From Candidatus Hydrogenedentota bacterium (GTDB taxonomy: Bacteria > Hydrogenedentota > Hydrogenedentia > Hydrogenedentales > SLHB01), in contig CAXXTH010000021.1 of assembly GCA_963668025.2 (NCBI GenBank), forward strand, positions 1-64,000: 64,000 bases of DNA. Direction: 5' to 3'. The notes under the pieces were generated by a model. The model ran no database searches. It was not told the DNA's origin and worked only from the letters and a program-made list of their open reading frames with translations. Both the position numbers and the translations under genes were made by a program. Below are positions 4,505-39,231 of the stretch, one piece after another; position 1 is the first letter of the stretch; the number at the start of each line of letters is the position of its first letter.

Positions 4505-4972
4505 ATGGAGGGCGCCGTGGAACGAAGTGAGATCGTGCGGCGCACATGGGAGGCCCTTGAGCCGCATTTGGCGGAACAAGGGTACGAGCTAGTGGAGATC
4601 GCGTATGTCTGTGAAGGGCACCGCGCGACGTTGCGGCTTTTTATAGATAAGCAAGGCGGTTTTACGCTGAACGATTGCACTGCGGTGGCGCAACTGGTGA
4701 GCCCGTTGCTGGACGCCGCGGATTTTATCTCAAGCCGGTATTACCTTGAAGTAGGTTCGCCGGGCATTGATCGGCCGTTGCGGAAGCCAGCCGATTTCGA
4801 ACGCTTTATCGGCGAAAACGTCAAGGTGCGGGCGGTCGAGCCCGTGGAGGGGCGCAAGAAGTTTAAAGGCGTATTGACCGGATTTCGAGACGGGCTGATT
4901 GTCCTAGATTGCGGCGGGACGATCTGTGAGATTCATATCGAGAATCTCGAACGAGCCAATCTGGACCGCTAA
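4505..4972 (+). CDS. rimP: Ribosome maturation factor RimP
   Basis: LRLFIDK..DC..V, YYLEVGSPGIDRPL; located upstream of nusA. Confidence 0.95.
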   Translation: MEGAVERSEIVRRTWEALEPHLAEQGYELVEIAYVCEGHRATLRLFIDKQGGFTLNDCTAVAQLVSPLLDAADFISSRYYLEVGSPGIDRPLRKPADFERFIGENVKVRAVEPVEGRKKFKGVLTGFRDGLIVLDCGGTICEIHIENLERANLDR

Positions 4973-32131: not shown

Positions 32132-32151
32132 TATTTAAATATTATAATTTT

Positions 32152-32225
32152 CTCACGCAAAGCCGCAAAGGCGCAAAGAAACCTCGTCATGCTCCCCCCT
32201 TTGCGCCTTTGCGCCTTTGCGTGAG
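32152..32225. repeat. ~74-bp GCGCAAAG palindrome, copy 1
   Basis: CTCACGCAAAGCCGCAAAGGCGCAAAG-AAACCTCGTCATGCTCCCCC-CTTTGCGCCTTTGCGCCTTTGCGTGAG. Confidence 0.95.
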
Positions 32226-32585
32226 AAATTCCTCCTGCAATCCATTCACCACCCGCTGTATCCCGTCCTTGATAAGCTCTTCTCCGAAATTCACCAATAA
32301 GCCAAGCCGTTTATCCGTCAAACGGAGATAGGTGAGGAGTTGTTTGGCATGGACCGGTGCGATTTTCTCCACGGACTTCAGTTCAATGATGAGCGTATCT
32401 TCTACGATGAGATCGGCGCGGAAACCTTCCTCGAATTGCTGGACCTCCCAGATAATAGGGACAGCAGCCTGCCGGTGTACTCGTAGTCCTCGATTCTCCA
32501 ATTCATGCACCAACACGGCCTGGTCCAAGCCTGGTGTGAATATAGTAACAGGCGTCCACGACCGATTTGGCGATCTCGTTTTCAG
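32187..32585 (-). pseudogene. GxxExxY-family nuclease-fold gene, copy 1 (disrupted)
   Basis: RADLIVEDTLIIELKSVE..H.KQLLTYLRL. A 23-nt deletion removes LLESVYE, the start codon is displaced to 35273-35275 by IS insertions, and the stop codon is lost so the ORF reads into the palindrome. Confidence 0.9.
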
Positions 32586-32595
32586 TGCGACCTAG

Positions 32596-34612
32596 CCCAT
32601 TTTCCGCAGTTGAGGCAAAGGAGGTTGGCGTTTTCTAGGAAAATTGGAGATTTCGGCGGGTTTTCGCCACTACATTTGGGATCGACTTTGGTTTATTGGG
32701 CAGGGGAAGGTCGAGTTTCTGGAGTAGGAGCGCGAGGCGCTGCTCGGGCTTGCTGACGGTGCGCAGGCGTAACTCTGTGCCTTGGCCGGTAGGCAAGACC
32801 ACGTCCAAGGAACGGACTTCGGCCATCTCTTCGAGGAGTTTTCGGGGCGCGGCGCCGAGGCCGGCGCCGTCCATCCATTGCTGGAGAGTCCGCCACATCA
32901 CGAGGGCAAGGAAGCACACGAGGATGTGTGCTTGGGTCCGGCGTTCTCTGTGATGGAAGATGGGCCTGAGGCCGAGGTCGTGCTTGCTGATGCGAAAGCT
33001 GTCCTCGATCTGCGTGAGGCCGATGTAGGCTTTCCAGAGTTGCTTTGGGTCGTGGTTCTGGAGGTTGGTGCGCAGCAGGTAGCAGCCGTCGGTAAGTTCG
33101 GCCCATTCGCGATGGGCGGGGTCTTGGGTGATGGCGATGGCGAGGCGCTTGCCGCTTTTGTGTTTGGGGTCGTCTTGTTCGCGGATGGCCACTTGGAAGA
33201 AGCGGGCGGCGCGGGAGTACTTCTGGAAGCACCGGCCCACGTGGCGTTCAGCGGCGCCGCGGTCGCGCAGGGCGCGTGTGCCGGCGTCGATGCGCGCTTT
33301 GAGCCGGTTGAGTTCAGCCTCGAGCTTCACGCGCTGTTTCTCGCGTATGGCCCGTTCTTTTTCGATGCGGCCGCGCGAGCGACAGAGCACGAAGGTCTCG
33401 TCTTCGTCCTCGGGCGAGGGGCGGAGTTTCACCTCCACCTCGGGCTCCACTTGCTCCCAACCCTGTTCCAAGAGGTCACGCTCGAACTGTTTGAGCATGC
33501 TTTTGGGCGTGCCCACGAGATAGCTCGCCTTGGCCTCGCGCAGCATCTCGAGGTTGTCCTCGCTCACCATGCCGCGGTCCATGACCCACGTGCGGCGCTC
33601 GTGGCCGTACTTCGTGCGCATGGCCTCCACCATCTCCTCCACCGTGGTCACGTCCCTGCGGTTGCCGTCGAAGACCTCGTAGGCCAGGGGAAGTCCCTCC
33701 GGCGTGGCCACCAGCGCAATGCAGACCTGCACGCAATCGGGCCGCTTGTCCCGGGAGTAGCCTCGTTTCGCTTGAGGGTTGTCCCCCGCCTGCCCCTCGA
33801 AGTACGTCGACGTGATGTCGTAGAGCAGGATGTCGAAGGTGGCGCCAAACAGCTCGCCATAGACCTTCTGGAAGTGACCGAAGAGCGCGTCCTTGTGGGG
33901 CAGCAGCGCGTCGAGAGCCCGGTACAGACGGTCCTCATTCACCTTCTCCGGCGCCACGTCGAGGATATCCTCCAAGGCCGTCTTGCCATACCACGACTCG
34001 GCGATGTGCAACTCCGACGACGGCGCGCAGAACCGCGCCAACGTGAGGATACAAGCCATTACGCCCCACGGGATCTCCTCGCGGCCTGGCGCCATGGCTT
34101 CGTCGAAAAACGTATCCAGCTTAAGCCGCCGCCACAACGCCAGCCCCAAGTAGACCTCGCCGAAACGGTGTAACCGTTCCACCCGCACCCGAGACGTGTC
34201 CACCGTCGCCCACGCCGGCGGTTCCGGCTCGACTTCGAGCAAGTCCCGCTGATGCACCCGGCCATCGAGGATCTCCCCGATGTGCTCCCAGCCCACCCGC
34301 GCTTCCTCATCCAGGCCCGGCAGCTTCCCGATGGTGGCCACCGTCCGCTGGCGCGGCCCATTCGCCGTGCGCACCGACTCCACGAGCGACCAATACTCGT
34401 AGGTCACGCCATCGAAGGTCTTCCGATTCGGCTTGAGAAACACGATGCCAGAGCCTCCCAACTGGCACTCATGATCTCACGCGCTGGCCCGCGTAACAAG
34501 GGGGTTTTCGCCACTACACGGAAATCCTACCAGCACGCAAGACCAACAAAGGACTTACAGCCGAAAAGACGCTCAAAACCAGAAAAAAGACGGCCTTACT
34601 GCGGAAAATGGG
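32596..34612 (-). mobile_element. IS1634-family insertion sequence
   Basis: Perfect 15-bp IRs CCCATTTTCCGCAGT / ACTGCGGAAAATGGG, flanked on both sides by CTAG (32592-32595, 34613-34616). Confidence 0.93.
32635..34443 (-). CDS. IS1634-family DDE transposase
   Basis: YDITSTYFEG, RGYSRDKRPD, VMDRGM, GCYLLRTN, IEDSFR..K.DL..RP..H, AHILVCFLA; probable GTG start (MFLK). Confidence 0.93.
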   Translation of the reverse strand: MFLKPNRKTFDGVTYEYWSLVESVRTANGPRQRTVATIGKLPGLDEEARVGWEHIGEILDGRVHQRDLLEVEPEPPAWATVDTSRVRVERLHRFGEVYLGLALWRRLKLDTFFDEAMAPGREEIPWGVMACILTLARFCAPSSELHIAESWYGKTALEDILDVAPEKVNEDRLYRALDALLPHKDALFGHFQKVYGELFGATFDILLYDITSTYFEGQAGDNPQAKRGYSRDKRPDCVQVCIALVATPEGLPLAYEVFDGNRRDVTTVEEMVEAMRTKYGHERRTWVMDRGMVSEDNLEMLREAKASYLVGTPKSMLKQFERDLLEQGWEQVEPEVEVKLRPSPEDEDETFVLCRSRGRIEKERAIREKQRVKLEAELNRLKARIDAGTRALRDRGAAERHVGRCFQKYSRAARFFQVAIREQDDPKHKSGKRLAIAITQDPAHREWAELTDGCYLLRTNLQNHDPKQLWKAYIGLTQIEDSFRISKHDLGLRPIFHHRERRTQAHILVCFLALVMWRTLQQWMDGAGLGAAPRKLLEEMAEVRSLDVVLPTGQGTELRLRTVSKPEQRLALLLQKLDLPLPNKPKSIPNVVAKTRRNLQFS

Positions 34613-34725
34613 CTAGAAACCCACGTCCTTTGGACGTGGTCATAGGGCCTTTGGCTCAGCCTGTTTGAGCCCATCGGCATCCCCTACACTCGTGTTGTTC
34701 CGCAACACCGAGGAAGGAGATGCCA

Positions 34726-35160
34726 ATGAGTCGTTTCCGCAAATTATCACATGCGATATGGTATTGCCAATATCACATGGTATGGGTGCCCAAATACCGC
34801 TACCGGGTTTTGACGGGACCGGTGGGCAAGGAGGTCTACACCTGTATCCAAATGTTCTGTGGGCAGCAAGGATGCGAGGTGCTCGAATTGAATGTACAGC
34901 CCGAGCACGTGCATTTGCTTGTGATGGTTCCGCCAAAGGTGTCGATATCGGATCTGGCGGGCATTTTGAAGGGGCGTACGGCGATCCGGATATTCAAGCA
35001 GTTTCCGCATTTGAAAAAGAAGCCCTATTGGGGCAATCATTTCTGGGCACCTGGATATTGCGTGGATACCGTGGGGCTTAACGAAGAAATGATCCGCAAG
35101 TACGTGAAGTTCCAGGAAGAAGCGGAACGTCACGATGAACAGCTAAAATTGAAGTACTGA
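34726..35160 (+). CDS. tnpA: IS200/IS605 Y1 (HUH) transposase TnpA
   Basis: YHMVWVPKYR, EHVHLL (HUH), LKG, FWAPGY, catalytic YVKFQ (YxxxQ); RBS AGGAAGGAG. Confidence 0.96.
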   Translation: MSRFRKLSHAIWYCQYHMVWVPKYRYRVLTGPVGKEVYTCIQMFCGQQGCEVLELNVQPEHVHLLVMVPPKVSISDLAGILKGRTAIRIFKQFPHLKKKPYWGNHFWAPGYCVDTVGLNEEMIRKYVKFQEEAERHDEQLKLKY

Positions 35161-35300
35161 ACCAAGCGGTGTTGCGGAACACAACCCACGCTTGCATCCT
35201 TTGGGTGCAAGCACTCAGCCACTCTCTGAGTGGCCAAAGCAAAGCCACGTCCTCTGGGCGTGGTTTTTTACTCATGCCGTCTCTCCCGATACTTTTTTAT

Positions 35301-35374
35301 CTCACGCAAAGGCGCAAAGGCGCAAAGAAACCTCGTCATGCTCCCCCCTTTGCGCCTTAGCGCCTTTGCGTGAG
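35301..35374. repeat. ~74-bp GCGCAAAG palindrome, copy 2
   Basis: Near-identical to copy 1; ends 14 bp from the stop codon of the cargo gene at 35389. Confidence 0.95.
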
Positions 35375-35388
35375 AAATTCTTTTCGTA

Positions 35389-37053
35389 TCAATTAGCCGG
35401 GATAGCTCCCGACTTTTTTAGCTCTTCTATTTGTTGATCTGGAGGCAATACAAAAGAAAAATCAAAGTTTAGTTCAGCAATTTGTCCATTCCGCAGAGTC
35501 ACGCGCTGGCAAATCGGTTCCGGATCATAAGTAACTCCTGGGATTGTGCATCCAAGTCCACAACTACAGAAACCAATCACATCGTACTCTCCAGGAGGCA
35601 AATTCAGGATCTCGTACTGGTTTTCGCCGACGGGACACCATGTTCTAGCGACGAGTCCATTATCATTCCCGTTGCCTGCCGATTCTGTATTGTCTACCCA
35701 AATGGTTGGCGCTGTACCGGCTTTATAGACTCGGACGATATAGGAGAAATCACTTACTTTAGTATAAGTGCCCCGGATGCCACATGAGCCCATGATGTCT
35801 ATGTTCGCTCGCACCGTTTCTCCCGGCGGCACATTGACTATCATACAGTTTACAGATGTCGTTTGTGCAACGACGTGAACATCCGAGAACGTGTATTCCG
35901 CTTGAACCTGGTACAAAGCAGCAGACAGATTCTCTATAGTAAAGGAGCCATCTGTTAATATGTTGGGATTTGCTATTCTTTTACTACGGACATTGCCATC
36001 GGGATCAAGCTGCGTTATCGAGACCTTCACATGCTTCGCTAGAGGTATTCCGTCTTTTACCGCATCGTCCTTGAGCGGAACTCCATTCATGGTGACATAA
36101 CCTTCGATGCGTCCAAATCCATCCAGGTAGATAATGCCCAGGTCGGTGTCTTCGCCGGAGGTTATCGTGATGTCCGGCAGTTCCTGGGTCACATAGCCAA
36201 ATGATGCGACGGATATCTTCGCCACGCCGGGCTCCAGATGGGTGATCTGAAAACGCCCGTCCCCCAAGTCACACTTGGGTACGCCCGTTGAACCATCCGC
36301 GCCATCGTTTCGAGTTAATTCCAGCACGCACGAATGAAAATCGTCGAAAGGTTTCTTGGAGTAACTCTTGCACACCTGCCCCGAGATACTACCCAGTTTG
36401 ATCACATGCACTTGCAGCTTTTTGTTGCTGGGCTCCATTCCTGTGAGATGGCCCTCTTGGTATTCCTCGTGGGTGAAGCTCAACGCGAGTTTGCCCTCCG
36501 GCAGACCAATCAAGCGAAAATCGCCTTTGGCATTGGTGGTGGTTTTCGCGAATATCCCGTTGGCGCCGCCGACGAGCGCCACTTGGACGCCTTCGACGGG
36601 GGCATCGGATATAGAGTCCTTCACATTCCCTGCGATAACGCTCTTTTCCGGATTGGGAATGCGCACGTTTACGTTCTCGATAGGCTCGTTTTCCCGCAAC
36701 GTACAGGCACGGTTTTGGGCGGGCAGCCGGTACAAGGTGGTGTCTTGCATGCAAGACACATAGAACAGATATCTCCCAGGGGCGATATCATGAATGCTGA
36801 ACCGGCCTTCAGGATCGCACTGGACAGGGATAGAGGCTTGCACGCCCTCGGAACTGGCGAGTTCCACCCAGACGCCCTCGATCGCTTTACCCGAGGTATC
36901 CGTCACCTGGCCCGTCACCCAGGTATCGTCTGGCGTCTCTGGCGAAGCCGTAACTTGCGCGGCTTGCAAGGCTTCATGCGGTGTACAGACCAAGAACACC
37001 AAAAGCCCGGCCGCCGCCCCAATAGCCAGCATGGATGCAATACGTAATCGCAT
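35389..37053 (-). CDS. Secreted/membrane-anchored protein with repeated carboxypeptidase-regulatory-like (transthyretin-like beta-sandwich) domains
   Basis: N-terminal hydrophobic helix; repeated 'G.V.D..G.P..GV.V...T...G.F.I..L.PG.Y' units; lower GC than neighbours. Confidence 0.8.
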   Translation of the reverse strand: MRLRIASMLAIGAAAGLLVFLVCTPHEALQAAQVTASPETPDDTWVTGQVTDTSGKAIEGVWVELASSEGVQASIPVQCDPEGRFSIHDIAPGRYLFYVSCMQDTTLYRLPAQNRACTLRENEPIENVNVRIPNPEKSVIAGNVKDSISDAPVEGVQVALVGGANGIFAKTTTNAKGDFRLIGLPEGKLALSFTHEEYQEGHLTGMEPSNKKLQVHVIKLGSISGQVCKSYSKKPFDDFHSCVLELTRNDGADGSTGVPKCDLGDGRFQITHLEPGVAKISVASFGYVTQELPDITITSGEDTDLGIIYLDGFGRIEGYVTMNGVPLKDDAVKDGIPLAKHVKVSITQLDPDGNVRSKRIANPNILTDGSFTIENLSAALYQVQAEYTFSDVHVVAQTTSVNCMIVNVPPGETVRANIDIMGSCGIRGTYTKVSDFSYIVRVYKAGTAPTIWVDNTESAGNGNDNGLVARTWCPVGENQYEILNLPPGEYDVIGFCSCGLGCTIPGVTYDPEPICQRVTLRNGQIAELNFDFSFVLPPDQQIEELKKSGAIPAN

Positions 37054-37140
37054 GGCTTGCCCTTTCTGTACCGGTAAAATTCCGTTTGCCAGCGTAAGGT
37101 GACGTCTTGATGATGCACAGGGATTGGCCGGTTTTTTTAG

Positions 37141-37214
37141 CTCACGCAAAGGCGCAAAGGCGCAAAGAAACCTCGTCATGCTCCCCCCTTTGCGCCTTTG
37201 CGCCTTTGCGTGAG
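37141..37214. repeat. 74-bp GCGCAAAG palindrome, copy 3 (perfect 27-bp arms, 20-nt loop)
   Basis: Read directly; lies 2 bp from the stop codon of GxxExxY copy 2. Confidence 0.95.
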
Positions 37215-37216
37215 AC

Positions 37217-37599
37217 TTACTCCTGCAATCCATTCACCACCCGCTTTATCCCGTCCTTGATAAGCTCTGCCCCGAAATTCACCAATAAGCCAAGCCGTTT
37301 ATCCGTCAAACGGAGATAGGTGAGGAGTTGTTTGGCATGGACCGGCGCGATTTTTTCCACGGACTTCAGTTCAATGATGAGCGTATCTTCGACGATGAGA
37401 TCGGCGCGGAAACCTTCCTCGAATTGCTGGCCCTCCCAGATAATAGGGACAGCAGCCTGCCGGTACACTCGTAGTCCTCGGTTCTCCAATTCATGCGCCA
37501 AACGGCCTCGTAGACCGACTCCAACAGGCCTGGTCCAAGCCTGGTATGAATATAGTAGCAGGCGTCCACGACCGATTTGGCTATTTCATTTTCAGTCAT
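37217..37599 (-). pseudogene. GxxExxY-family gene, copy 2 (single-base frameshift)
   Basis: MTENEIAKSVVDACYYIHTRLGPGLLESVYE, then a 1-nt loss at about 37502 (GCC GT- TTG versus GCC GTG TTG in copy 1). The rest continues in ORF 37217-37501. Confidence 0.9.
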
Positions 37600-37622
37600 G
37601 CCGTCTCTCCCTGTTTTTTTAG

Positions 37623-37696
37623 CTCACGCAAAGGCGCTAAGGCGCAAAGAAACCTCGTCATCCTCCCCCCTTTGCGCCTTAGCGCCTTTGCGTGAG
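37623..37696. repeat. ~74-bp GCGCAAAG palindrome, copy 4
   Basis: Same arms and loop. Compensatory change GCGCTAAG/CTTAGCGC preserves pairing. Confidence 0.95.
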
Positions 37697-37703
37697 AAAT
37701 TCT

Positions 37704-37726
37704 TTCACCACCCGCTGTATCCTGTC
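37704..37726 (-). pseudogene. 3' remnant of GxxExxY copy 3
   Basis: TTCACCACCCGCTGTATCCTGTC matches the copy 1 3' end (TTCACCACCCGCTGTATCCCGTC) at 22/23. Confidence 0.7.
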
Positions 37727-37802
37727 TCTAGTAAGAGCCTCTTTATGGTCCGCAGCTCTGGAGCTTCCGTTTCGGATTTATCTCACCCTCCACTGGCCGA
37801 AC

Positions 37803-37831
37803 TTGACACAACCCCTTATATCGTTTAATAT
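37803..37831 (+). promoter_or_regulatory. Sigma70-type promoter of cargo gene
   Basis: TTGACA-17 nt-TAATAT. Confidence 0.55.
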
Positions 37832-37877
37832 ATTGGACACATACACTAGACGTCAAGTAGAAAGTGAGGTTGTGCAG

Positions 37878-38786
37878 ATGTTTGATGAGCGCCGCCTGTT
37901 TCGATCTCCGGGAGTGCTGGCCGGTATTTTGCTTGCGTTACTCGTAGTTTTGGCGGTATTGCTCTTTTTTGTATTTCCTCCGAAGAGCAATGATGTCGAC
38001 TTCACTTATATAGACACCTCGACGGAGGATTCATCATCTCTTCCCCTTGCAGACACTGAAACCGCTCGCGCCGTTTCCACGGCCGAGCGGTTTCCTGCAT
38101 GTGACGGGCTCCTGGCGGAGTACAAACAGGACGCCGAACGTTTTCTCGCGGATGTGGCGGCCTACCGCCAGTCGATGCCGGTGTATGAACAGTACATGCG
38201 ATTGCTGGAAGGCACCATCGCTCCCCTACAGACTAGAGGTGAACAATGTTTGGAAGAGTTGCGTAGAGCGGGAATGGAGCCCAAAGGCAGGGATTTTGCA
38301 GATGTAGAAGTACCTGTCATCAAGGCCTTCACGTATACCTTTAGCGATTTCTCCTTGGAGTTTTTGAAAGACGCTTCGTGCCGAAGGCTGAACGTCAAAG
38401 AAAAAGACCTAAGTGGATTATCGAATTTGATACAGAATCCCATTATTCAAAAGATCACTATAAATGCCGCTTGTCCGTTCACGGCGGGAACACCAGAGTA
38501 CAAGAAGTTCTATGCCAGATACGAACTGATATTAGTGAAGTTCACGCGTATGTGTACCCCAGCAGTATCGGCGCTGCCTCCCTATCTGGAAGAGCGAAGG
38601 CAGAAGCTGCTCAAACGGCGGGAGGCGTTGATTGTGTTCGCTCCGTTCCAGGAAGAAATGCTTCCGGAACCGGTGGATCCGTATAGCCGAAAGATCGAAG
38701 AAATCAGTCAAGGCTTGCCCGAGCGCGATGTACCACTGATCGTGATACGCTATAATATGAAATGGATATACCAGCGTTTGTTTTAG
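37878..38786 (+). CDS. Hypothetical protein with N-terminal membrane anchor
   Basis: GAGG RBS; TM segment GVLAGILLALLVVLAVLLFFVF; no known motif; lower GC. Confidence 0.7.
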   Translation: MFDERRLFRSPGVLAGILLALLVVLAVLLFFVFPPKSNDVDFTYIDTSTEDSSSLPLADTETARAVSTAERFPACDGLLAEYKQDAERFLADVAAYRQSMPVYEQYMRLLEGTIAPLQTRGEQCLEELRRAGMEPKGRDFADVEVPVIKAFTYTFSDFSLEFLKDASCRRLNVKEKDLSGLSNLIQNPIIQKITINAACPFTAGTPEYKKFYARYELILVKFTRMCTPAVSALPPYLEERRQKLLKRREALIVFAPFQEEMLPEPVDPYSRKIEEISQGLPERDVPLIVIRYNMKWIYQRLF

Positions 38787-38850
38787 GCAATGGTTGATCA
38801 TCCGGATCTTGCACCACGAAAAACACAGCGTGGAATAGCCGCGTTTTTTT

Positions 38851-38880
38851 ACCGCGAATGAACGCGAATGAACGCGAATA
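38851..38880 (+). repeat. (AACGCGAATG)x3 tandem arm preceded by a T-tract
   Basis: ACCGCGAATG AACGCGAATG AACGCGAATA. Confidence 0.85.
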
Positions 38881-38890
38881 TATCCTCTAA

Positions 38891-38938
38891 ATAGTAGCAG
38901 GCGTCCACAACCGATTTGGCTATTTCACTTTCGGTCAT
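38891..38938 (-). pseudogene. 5' remnant of GxxExxY copy 3
   Basis: Encodes MTESEIAKSVVDACYY, nearly identical to the copy 2 N-terminus. Confidence 0.85.
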
Positions 38939-38962
38939 GATTTCTCGCCCAGCGGCTTTTTT

Positions 38963-39031
38963 ATCCCGAGCAAAGATGCGAAGGCGCAAAGAAGACTCGT
39001 CATACCCCCCCTTTTTGCGGCTTTGCGTGAA
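38963..39031. repeat. Degenerate GCGCAAAG palindrome, copy 5
   Basis: ...GCAAAGATGCGAAGGCGCAAAG-AAGACTCGTCATACCCCCC-CTTTTTGCGGCTTTGCGTGA; the loop is recognisably the same. Confidence 0.8.
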
Positions 39032-39231
39032 ACAAAAACAACTGGTAAAACCGCTTCCCATAGCATGGCGGAGAGAGCCACACAACGGGAAGCATGAAAA
39101 AACGCATGTCGTACCATTCATCCTTTTTTTCGATACGCTTGCCCTCTATTCCGGCTCTTTGAATTGTATCTCGCATCTGGAAGCCCGATCATGATAAAAT
39201 CATTCTTCCACCCGGGCCGGAGTATTTTCAA

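Follow-up and report, generated by a model that had tools for sequence, protein, structure and literature searches.

The attC sites of integrons are imperfect palindromes with extrahelical bases and with R and L boxes, and a tyrosine recombinase, IntI, lies adjacent to them. Intervening sequences lie in a helix of the 23S rRNA and are cut out by RNase III; in Leptospira and Coxiella they may bear an open reading frame (ORF), S23p, whose product is a four-helix bundle (PF05635). A free-standing homing endonuclease gene is a small nuclease gene that spreads by way of a break at a gene-less allele, which is then repaired from a gene-bearing copy. Repetitive extragenic palindromes (REPs), the partners of REP-associated tyrosine transposases (RAYTs), start with a GTAG or CGTC head, as stated in PMC3733652. 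The protein family PF13366 is listed in PMC3424549 as having unknown function and multiple transfers, and in the literature searched, with subscription journals and supplements outside its scope, no link was found between GxxExxY/PF13366 proteins and palindromic repeats. The locus described here places the two side by side: in a 64,000-nt window from a Candidatus Hydrogenedentota bacterium (assembly GCA_963668025.2, positions 1 to 64,000 of contig CAXXTH010000021.1, here C21), five long DNA hairpins (P1 to P5) alternate with three copies of a GxxExxY nuclease gene, a surface-protein gene (the cargo) and an orphan gene, between a transglutaminase-like gene and nadC. Coordinates of hairpins and genes are positions within this window; contigs labelled C8, C10, C17, C18, C19 and C23 belong to the same 6.1-Mb genome.

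The interval is probably what remains of a local array, now decayed, whose unit is selfish and widespread: a long DNA hairpin with a small GxxExxY nuclease gene. In gene orientation the array reads P5, copy #3, P4, copy #2, P3, cargo, P2, copy #1 and P1, followed by the convergent transglutaminase-like gene, and all of the GxxExxY copies are on the minus strand. The initial annotation of this DNA, made from the letters alone, had the layout right but incomplete, as it overlooked two insertion sequences (IS), an IS1634-family element and an IS200, between copy #1 and P2. One unit has a total length of 482 bp and comprises a hairpin module of ∼95 bp, a leader of 22-25 nt with a ribosome-binding site, and the 381-nt GxxExxY gene. 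The module itself consists, in gene orientation, of GAATTT, a 27-bp arm, a 20-nt loop, the second arm and (C/A)TAAAAAAR.

The assignment of the gene to GxxExxY is borne out by profile searches, in which TIGR04256 (104 bits, curated cut-off 35) and PF13366 (PDDEXK_3; 99 bits, cut-off 22) both recognise copies #1 and #2 well above threshold. The signature motif, as GPGLLESVY, lies in the 5' frame of copy #2. Residues G17, G19, E22, Y25, E32, D62, E72, K74, Q86, Y90, N103, F104 and R115 are invariant in 30 relatives, and the D, E and K of ADLIVEDTLIIELK align with D62, E72 and K74. The predicted structure, a compact PD-(D/E)XK fold containing these three residues (predicted local distance difference test score, pLDDT, 97.4), agrees with the fold first proposed for the protein. 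The best matches in a fold search, Cas4 SSO0001 (Z 8.1), the BpuSI nuclease domain (7.7), 3ijm (7.7) and an archaeal Hjc (6.7), would place the model in the general PD-(D/E)XK fold without pointing to a nameable subfamily; by sequence, no solved structure gives a match below E 0.2. Prediction of a homodimer returned a score of 0.00.

Hairpins P1-P4, 74-80 bp long, have arms of 27-30 bp with 96-100% complementarity, made of three GCGCAAAG-type octamers and beginning with CTCACGCAAAGG; the GTAG or CGTC head is absent. Their 20-nt loops are identical and co-oriented, as initially described. Folded as single-stranded DNA, they reach -34.4 to -37.2 kcal/mol (z about -11), a stability equalled by none of 200 shuffles, and the stems of P3 and P4 are perfect over 27 bp, tandem octamers without bulges. 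The original count of five hairpins with 27-bp arms thus holds for four of them: P5 is a decayed copy (z -2.0), and its fold is matched by 8 of 200 shuffles. The palindromes do stand close to gene ends, with 2 nt between the stop codon of GxxExxY#2 (37217-37219) and P3, 13-14 nt between the cargo stop (35389-35391) and P2, and the start of P1 17 nt 3' of the transglutaminase stop. The compensatory change reported for P4 is real: a T/A variant occurs in both of its arms, and likewise in those of a hairpin at C23:334158, but the identical variant is confined to one arm in P2, C23:334452 and C23:371961. This mosaic pattern is explained by exchange at or near the loop, or by arm-to-arm templated correction, as well as by selection for pairing. 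With its T-run ahead of the stem, the module does not qualify as a canonical terminator on either strand, and the sole match in Rfam was sub-threshold (Chlorobi-1, 18.9 bits against a cut-off of 50, E 0.22). A putative leader peptide starting at the ATG in the loop and ending in ATGA at the start of copy #2 was rejected as chance, since the frame is not maintained at P2, whose leader has 2 additional nt.

Outside the window, GxxExxY genes are regularly accompanied by arms of this kind. The genome contains 15 matches to the GxxExxY profile, among them eight solo copies; six of these are clean over the full frame, the C-terminus is shifted in C8:159254, and C17:901390 contains an in-frame TAA. 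Inverted tandem-unit arms stand on both sides of seven of the eight, with the units CTCTGTG, CTTTGTG, TTTAGTG, ATCTTGT (twice), CTTCGCG and ATTCGCGTCC, and for the eighth (C10:1219644) tandem units are confined to a single side. A tandem array with a period of 7-10 lies within 150 nt of 12 of the 15 GxxExxY places, where the authors estimate an expectation of ∼0.1 per locus, given 991 arrays of this type in the 6.1 Mb. Identity between the two copies that have ATCTTGT arms is 91%. The window copies are closest (58-66%) within the genome to C17:901390, whose arms are of a related GCGAAG/GCGCAAAG type; this paralog carries the in-frame TAA, and the genome has no intact GxxExxY gene with window-type arms.

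Across the phylum, this large family is present in 100 of 121 sampled genomes, and it extends to many other phyla. When the best locus from each of 30 genomes was scored for an inverted repeat (170 nt upstream and downstream, score at least 16), the gene was bracketed in 25 of 30 cases and in none of 53 controls shifted by 900 nt; the arms at the bracketed loci are all tandem units of 8-10 nt. Over 33 loci, protein identity correlates with the sharing of arm 7-mers (Spearman 0.40, reached by 0 of 2000 permutations), and an arm 7-mer is common to a locus and its nearest-protein neighbour in 27 of 33 loci, as against 30% of all pairs.

The association extends to other phyla. The exact 23-nt arm CGCAAAGGCGCWAAGGCGCAAAG was found in at least 119 stretches of contigs representing one genome per species, for which the chance expectation is ∼0.03 by the authors' arithmetic, and these stretches include Cyanobacteria, Acidobacteriota, Myxococcota, Chloroflexota, Planctomycetota, Bacteroidota, Chlamydiota and Proteobacteria. 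Loops vary between the genomes that share the arm. Among 80 loci whose neighbourhood was checked, three have a GxxExxY gene within 150 nt, in Nostoc, in Pyrinomonadaceae and in a metagenome-assembled genome (MAG) of Deltaproteobacteria. The proteins encoded there are 61-67% identical to the window protein and are its best matches; the best of 30 GxxExxY proteins of its own phylum reaches 53%, and a fourth protein, encoded 614 nt from an identical arm, 44%. Since the proteins beside the arm are the ones closest to the window protein, gene and arms move together between phyla, and this co-movement is the strongest comparative argument that GxxExxY works on the arms. Arm type follows protein clade, even across phyla. 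Together with the bracketed solo copies and the phylum-wide survey, these closest proteins bear out the part of the initial annotation that had likened the pairing of GxxExxY and hairpins to that of RAYT and REP. At a locus of a Deltaproteobacteria MAG (L065:2200-3700), with the same arm in another phylum, a row of arm pairs, TCACGCCAAGCCGCCAAG-type facing CTTTGCGCC-type imperfectly, accompanies one intact GxxExxY gene.

The window hairpins represent a single variant within a superfamily of tandem-unit palindromes, with units of 8-10 nt, that extends over the whole genome. By the authors' own scans and thresholds, the genome contains 126 long hairpins in about ten families, of which 37 were hand-picked as octamer-type (tandem 8-nt units CACAGAGA, CACAAAGA, CACGAAGA, CACCAAGA and GCGCAAAG), P5 being added by hand. 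Most of these octamer-type hairpins lie 10-60 nt 3' of the stops of ordinary genes, often between convergent genes; the genes ahead of them encode BamA, glycoside hydrolases, a sulfatase, aminotransferases, radical SAM enzymes and many ORFs without a family. Strong copies of the window hairpin itself are limited to three places: the window, C23:332162-334525 (three strong copies and one decayed) and C23:371961 (one strong hairpin, with a decayed copy at ∼371800 and a half copy at ∼373970). A single arm or a hybrid of it occurs at five further places.

Three side observations concern the superfamily. Most of the gene-less tandem-unit hairpins have a topology the reverse of that of P1-P5, with a T-rich arm ending in GGTGAA, a short loop with TCCGGA, and TTCACC followed by an A-rich arm (C18:137920, C17:240552, C17:1302520, C17:1577008, C18:216736, C18:373396, C19:168885 and C23:324762); such a hairpin is what deletion of the gene from an arm-gene-arm unit would leave. 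A hybrid hairpin at C10:269367-269440 has a left arm of GCGCAAAG type and a right arm of CACAAAGA type, and four of its six arm differences are C-to-T changes that keep G-T (G-U in RNA) pairing, which hints at RNA-level pairing or mutational bias. At C23:323284-327892 (locus L020:1618-6196), three tandem paralogous genes of 431 aa without a Pfam family form an array without GxxExxY; behind both the first and the second gene stands a CACAAAG-type hairpin (L020:3063-3135 and 4710-4782).

These distributions could also be read in favour of the host. The hairpins might be neutral or host-owned REP-like elements of 3' untranslated regions, acting in RNA stability or chromosome structure, and the GxxExxY genes separate selfish elements that home into them or are tolerated beside them and do not spread them. 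The position of most octamer-type hairpins behind ordinary genes fits this explanation, as do the retention of arms between genomes whose loops differ, the G-T pairing kept by the hybrid hairpin, and the identical arms elsewhere, 77 of 80 of which have no neighbouring GxxExxY. It accounts poorly for arm types that follow the protein clade, with at least six different units within this one genome and again across phyla; a gene that merely landed beside pre-existing host hairpins would hardly produce such a pattern. The module is also no canonical terminator on either strand. On balance, it is unlikely that the hairpins are primarily host or neutral elements.

If the array is instead the remnant of a selfish unit, its state is one of advanced decay (Table 1). 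No intact reading frame is left among the three window copies or the copies on C23, which are interrupted, frameshifted or truncated, so that no window copy can make a nuclease. Two of the three window copies were inactivated by insertion. In GxxExxY#1, the 22-nt deletion relative to #2 follows from alignment offsets of 4988 and 5010, and the IS1634 and IS200 elements are inserted immediately 3' of its start codon, with start codon and leader remaining beside P2. GxxExxY#2 is frameshifted, and a related contig in sequencing run X4 has an extra base that restores the frame. In GxxExxY#3 the middle is replaced by 1.1 kb between the 5' and 3' pieces. About 10 nt (AAAGAATTT) are also held in common behind the cargo stop; they may belong to the hairpin module, and a GxxExxY remnant at this point is a hint only.

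Table 1. Features of the hairpin and GxxExxY array, in window coordinates
Feature	Position	Strand	Remarks
P1 hairpin	32149-32228		30-bp arms, one mismatch, 20-nt loop; -34.4 kcal/mol, z -11.0
GxxExxY#1 remnant	32229-32589	-	no stop ahead of P1; 22-nt deletion vs #2; ATG severed by two IS elements
IS1634-family element	32590-34617	-	608-aa transposase 32635-34461, 337 bits
IS200	34613-35273	+	TnpA 34720-35160; own end hairpins 34617-34640, 35241-35264
GxxExxY#1 orphaned start codon (35275-35273) and ribosome-binding leader	35273-35299	-	
P2 hairpin	35300-35375		28-bp arms; T/A variant confined to one arm
Cargo surface-protein gene, 554 aa	35389-37053	-	N-terminal hydrophobic segment, CarboxypepD_reg (beta-sandwich) repeats; GC 52%
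P3 hairpin	37141-37214		perfect 27-bp arms; -37.2 kcal/mol
GxxExxY#2, full length, frameshifted	37217-37599	-	1-nt deletion near 37501
GxxExxY#2 leader, 23 nt	37600-37622	-	GGGAGAG ahead of ATG; includes hairpin-module flank (C/A)TAAAAAAR
P4 hairpin	37623-37696		perfect 27-bp arms; T/A variant in both
GxxExxY#3 3' fragment, ∼15 codons	37698-37742	-	
Orphan gene, 302 aa	37878-38786	+	N-terminal membrane helix; promoter-like site 37803-37831
Terminator-like hairpin (38827-38845) and arm of another repeat family, ACCGCGAATGAACGCGAATGAACGCGAAT (38851-38879)	38827-38889	+	
GxxExxY#3 5' fragment, ∼16 codons	38890-38938	-	ATG 38938-38936
P5 decayed hairpin copy	about 38965-39033		79-86% identity to P1-P4; -11.8 kcal/mol, z -2.0

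Part of the array recurs elsewhere in the genome. A block of hairpin, surface-protein gene, hairpin, GxxExxY remnant and hairpin is found in the same order at three loci (window 35292-37215 onward, C23:332147-334806 and C23:371800-374000). The surface-protein gene has two paralogs, each with these hairpins on both sides, whose DNA identity to the window cargo is 84% and 87%, and homology to the window stops at the outer ends of the hairpins. As the block is bounded by hairpins at all three loci, hairpin-mediated copying of the intervening DNA may have taken place. Within the second block, at C23:334158-334806, two successive GxxExxY copies have an identical 5' deletion and the same internal start after the hairpin; the shared deletion implies that it came first and that tandem duplication of a 294-bp unit followed. 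Two GxxExxY genes of 128 aa, both intact, form a 642-bp tandem repeat in a relative from a different genus (G008:C76); the repeat units are 98% identical in DNA, and modules of arm, 160 nt and arm precede, separate and follow the genes. The window genome itself has another array (C8:159130-161126), which contains two hairpin-gene units that are 92% identical, with 0.9 kb of unique DNA (50% GC) between them; one GxxExxY has a shifted C-terminus and the other is broken. With these two arrays as counterparts, the window array is a decayed instance of a recurring layout.

The interval between the transglutaminase-like gene and nadC is a low-GC island (50-52% GC inside the array, 56-64% in the flanks) and contains dead hairpin-GxxExxY units, two IS elements, a lineage-specific surface-protein gene and an orphan gene. 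The nearest genomes compared belong to other genera, their transglutaminase-like proteins are at most 37% identical, and at none of 11 loci in them does nadC lie within 1.5 kb of the transglutaminase-like gene. The CarboxypepD_reg repeats of the cargo vindicate its initial description as a beta-sandwich surface protein. No close ortholog was found among 53 genomes of the family, the best matches having 25-30% identity over parts, and a metagenome scan gave one 35-residue match. The cargo frame is open beyond the gene (35389-37233, minus strand): no stop separates an ATG in the loop of P3 (MTRFLCAFAPLRELKK...) from the signal-like start MRLRIASML, probably by chance. The orphan gene has no family match and, as a single copy, no paralog in the genome. 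The arm behind it (38851-38879) is built of CGCGAATGAA units and marks the right-hand breakpoint of the sequence inserted into GxxExxY#3. A module of ∼100 nt that includes such an arm occurs at three loci (window 38800-38889, C17:297341-297444 and C10:240301-240390), in the order small terminator-like hairpin, T-run, ACCGCGAATGAACGCGAAT arm and ATATATCCTCTA.

The initial annotation had explained this row of genes as an integrase-free cassette system, in which GxxExxY would cut the hairpins as recombination sites and foreign genes would be stacked between them as in an integron. Several features have that appearance: a gene other than GxxExxY stands exactly between two hairpins, 13-14 nt from P2; the hairpin-bounded block occurs at three loci with homology that ends at the hairpins; cargo and orphan gene are low in GC and lineage-specific; the C8 array likewise has unique DNA between its hairpin-gene units; and the chimeric hairpins are compatible with exchange at or within the loop. 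Accumulation of cargo by capture is nevertheless not supported. GxxExxY fills three of the five slots; the three blocks are mutual copies (84-87% nucleotide identity) and go back to one independent cargo event, multiplied afterwards as a block; C23:334158-334806 documents simple growth by tandem duplication; and the tandem array of the relative contains GxxExxY genes only. The orphan gene, which the initial annotation counted as cargo, runs in the opposite direction within a disrupted GxxExxY copy, and what bounds it is not a P hairpin but an arm from another repeat family. As for the machinery, an intact cognate nuclease is absent from the genome, no IntI or other tyrosine recombinase is encoded on C21 (all 11 Phage_integrase matches in the genome are on other contigs), and 77 of the 80 identical-arm loci lack GxxExxY within 150 nt, all of which speaks against an integron-like capture system. 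A cassette origin is quite improbable.

Both IS elements of the array have copies elsewhere: the IS1634 element has three further copies in the genome that are 99-100% identical (four in total), and the IS200 about ten full copies plus several deleted derivatives. Five internally deleted derivatives of IS200 (258 + 177 bp; 95-97% identical to the full element), at C10:18847-19275, C10:741882-742310, C18:131570-131998, C18:336091-336518 and C18:526819-527247, look like non-autonomous forms of the kind known as miniature inverted-repeat transposable elements (MITEs). That the hairpins are ordinary REPs moved by a Y1 transposase, with GxxExxY as a bystander, is scarcely credible: an IS200 TnpA does lie inside the array and the genome does have one true RAYT (161 bits), but the RAYT at C10:908725 is flanked by GTAGGGTGGGGCTTGCCCCACC REPs and not by tandem-unit hairpins, the end hairpins of IS200 differ from P1-P5, the array IS200 is one of about ten near-identical insertions, and the P hairpins have neither REP head.

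Several points weigh against the selfish-unit explanation. (i) The link between hairpin and GxxExxY is purely comparative; the correlation between arms and proteins would equally arise from co-inheritance alone, and part of it from relatedness alone, and kin are not independent. (ii) The cross-phylum support consists of three proteins, and the 77 of 80 identical-arm loci in other genomes without an adjoining GxxExxY indicate that hairpins persist, and perhaps spread, without a neighbouring gene. (iii) The gene lies within the loop at some loci and between two hairpins at others, which leaves the moving unit undefined. (iv) No target-site duplication, empty site or circle was seen and no close strain was compared; at the outer ends of the three blocks no direct repeat was noticed by eye, and there was no empty site to set beside them. 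(v) Six sequencing runs were identified as carrying this DNA, none of them recorded as RNA. Assembled contigs of sequencing runs X1-X4 end at hairpins, and joints have short sides (<31 nt) within the repeats, so the order of units across hairpins is without independent contig confirmation. The local joins from transglutaminase to P1 and from P4 through the copy #3 fragment to the orphan gene are each carried by one contig with 0 differences. Summed read depth is much higher over the hairpins than over the flanks, a figure that pools organisms and does not give copy number.

A mechanism can be proposed for the selfish hairpin-GxxExxY unit. The nuclease would recognise or cut the hairpin or cruciform formed by its own arms, and the break would be mended from a second copy, for which the arms provide the homology. 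Such repair could add, remove and shuffle units, giving rise to chimeric hairpins, and a solitary hairpin could be converted to hairpin-gene-hairpin. DNA between two cognate hairpins would be copied along, a possible origin of the three-locus block of surface-protein gene and GxxExxY, and arrays would grow by duplication or by recombination at the hairpins. The surface-protein and orphan genes would then be passengers that landed in dispensable selfish DNA, not products of a capture machinery. In its boldest form, the proposal makes GxxExxY proteins homing nucleases specific for hairpins or cruciforms, each lineage cutting the palindromes of its own tandem units, with the break healed from a cognate palindrome and gene and intervening DNA spreading: an integrase-free movement of genes within and between genomes. 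This boldest form is speculative and decidedly unlikely to hold as it stands.

The link to hairpins gives GxxExxY a candidate substrate, and gives the abundant and unexplained tandem-unit palindromes a candidate agent. If true, it would be a second partnership beside that of REP and RAYT, mechanistically different from it. The window adds that arm type tracks protein clade across phyla, and that arrays of the unit exist and decay. Through the passenger block that was copied three times, the movement of ordinary genes by hairpins becomes testable.

Compared with integrons, the array has co-oriented palindromes that punctuate a row of genes close to their 3' ends, folding of a single strand is plausible, and hairpin-gene-hairpin is the layout expected from a one-site circle inserted at a resident site. 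It differs in its perfect stems without extrahelical bases (the R and L boxes being compared without a model scan), in growth by tandem duplication with the same gene in most slots, and in the position of one cargo gene on the opposite strand within a broken unit. Recombinase, site structure and cassette diversity thus all set it apart from integrons. The 23S intervening sequences resemble it in having a small selfish ORF within inverted repeats that pair to a long stem, a design present across phyla; in contrast, the window array lies between a transglutaminase-like gene and nadC and not in an rRNA gene, its protein belongs to PF13366 and not PF05635, and complete hairpins flank its gene, whereas one stem encloses the S23p ORF. 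With homing endonuclease genes it would share spread by break and repair, as modelled here, and copies that decay after fixation, as in the window; the presumed GxxExxY target differs in being a dispersed structured repeat rather than a unique conserved gene, and its cleavage is putative.

The closest known system is that of REPs or REPINs with their RAYTs, the REPtrons described in PMC3116915, PMC3337134 and PMC8266576: the same design with another enzyme class and another repeat architecture. The genome has a classical REPtron of its own, its sole true RAYT at C10:908725-909177 having GTAG-headed REPs on both sides. Neither a Y1 RAYT flanked by the same repeat nor a GTAG or CGTC head is found for the window hairpins. 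The enzyme has a PD-(D/E)XK fold where the RAYT (TnpA-REP) has an HUH/Y1 fold, and the arms are of 3-4 tandem units of 8-10 nt in stems of 25-35 bp, compared with 20-40 bp and a GTAG or CGTC head in REPs. Moreover, GxxExxY occurs in multiple copies, one genome carries several arm types, and the gene is common to several phyla. What the two have in common is a small single-domain gene of nuclease type that stands between inverted copies of a palindromic repeat, a scatter of further repeat copies without the gene in intergenic spacers, local clusters, and a repeat type that goes with the gene lineage. Dispersed gene-less palindromes and a bracketed cognate gene are both present, with GxxExxY in the place of the RAYT. 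The comparison suggests that the hairpin-GxxExxY unit is a REP/RAYT-like design with a PD-(D/E)XK enzyme and tandem-unit arms.

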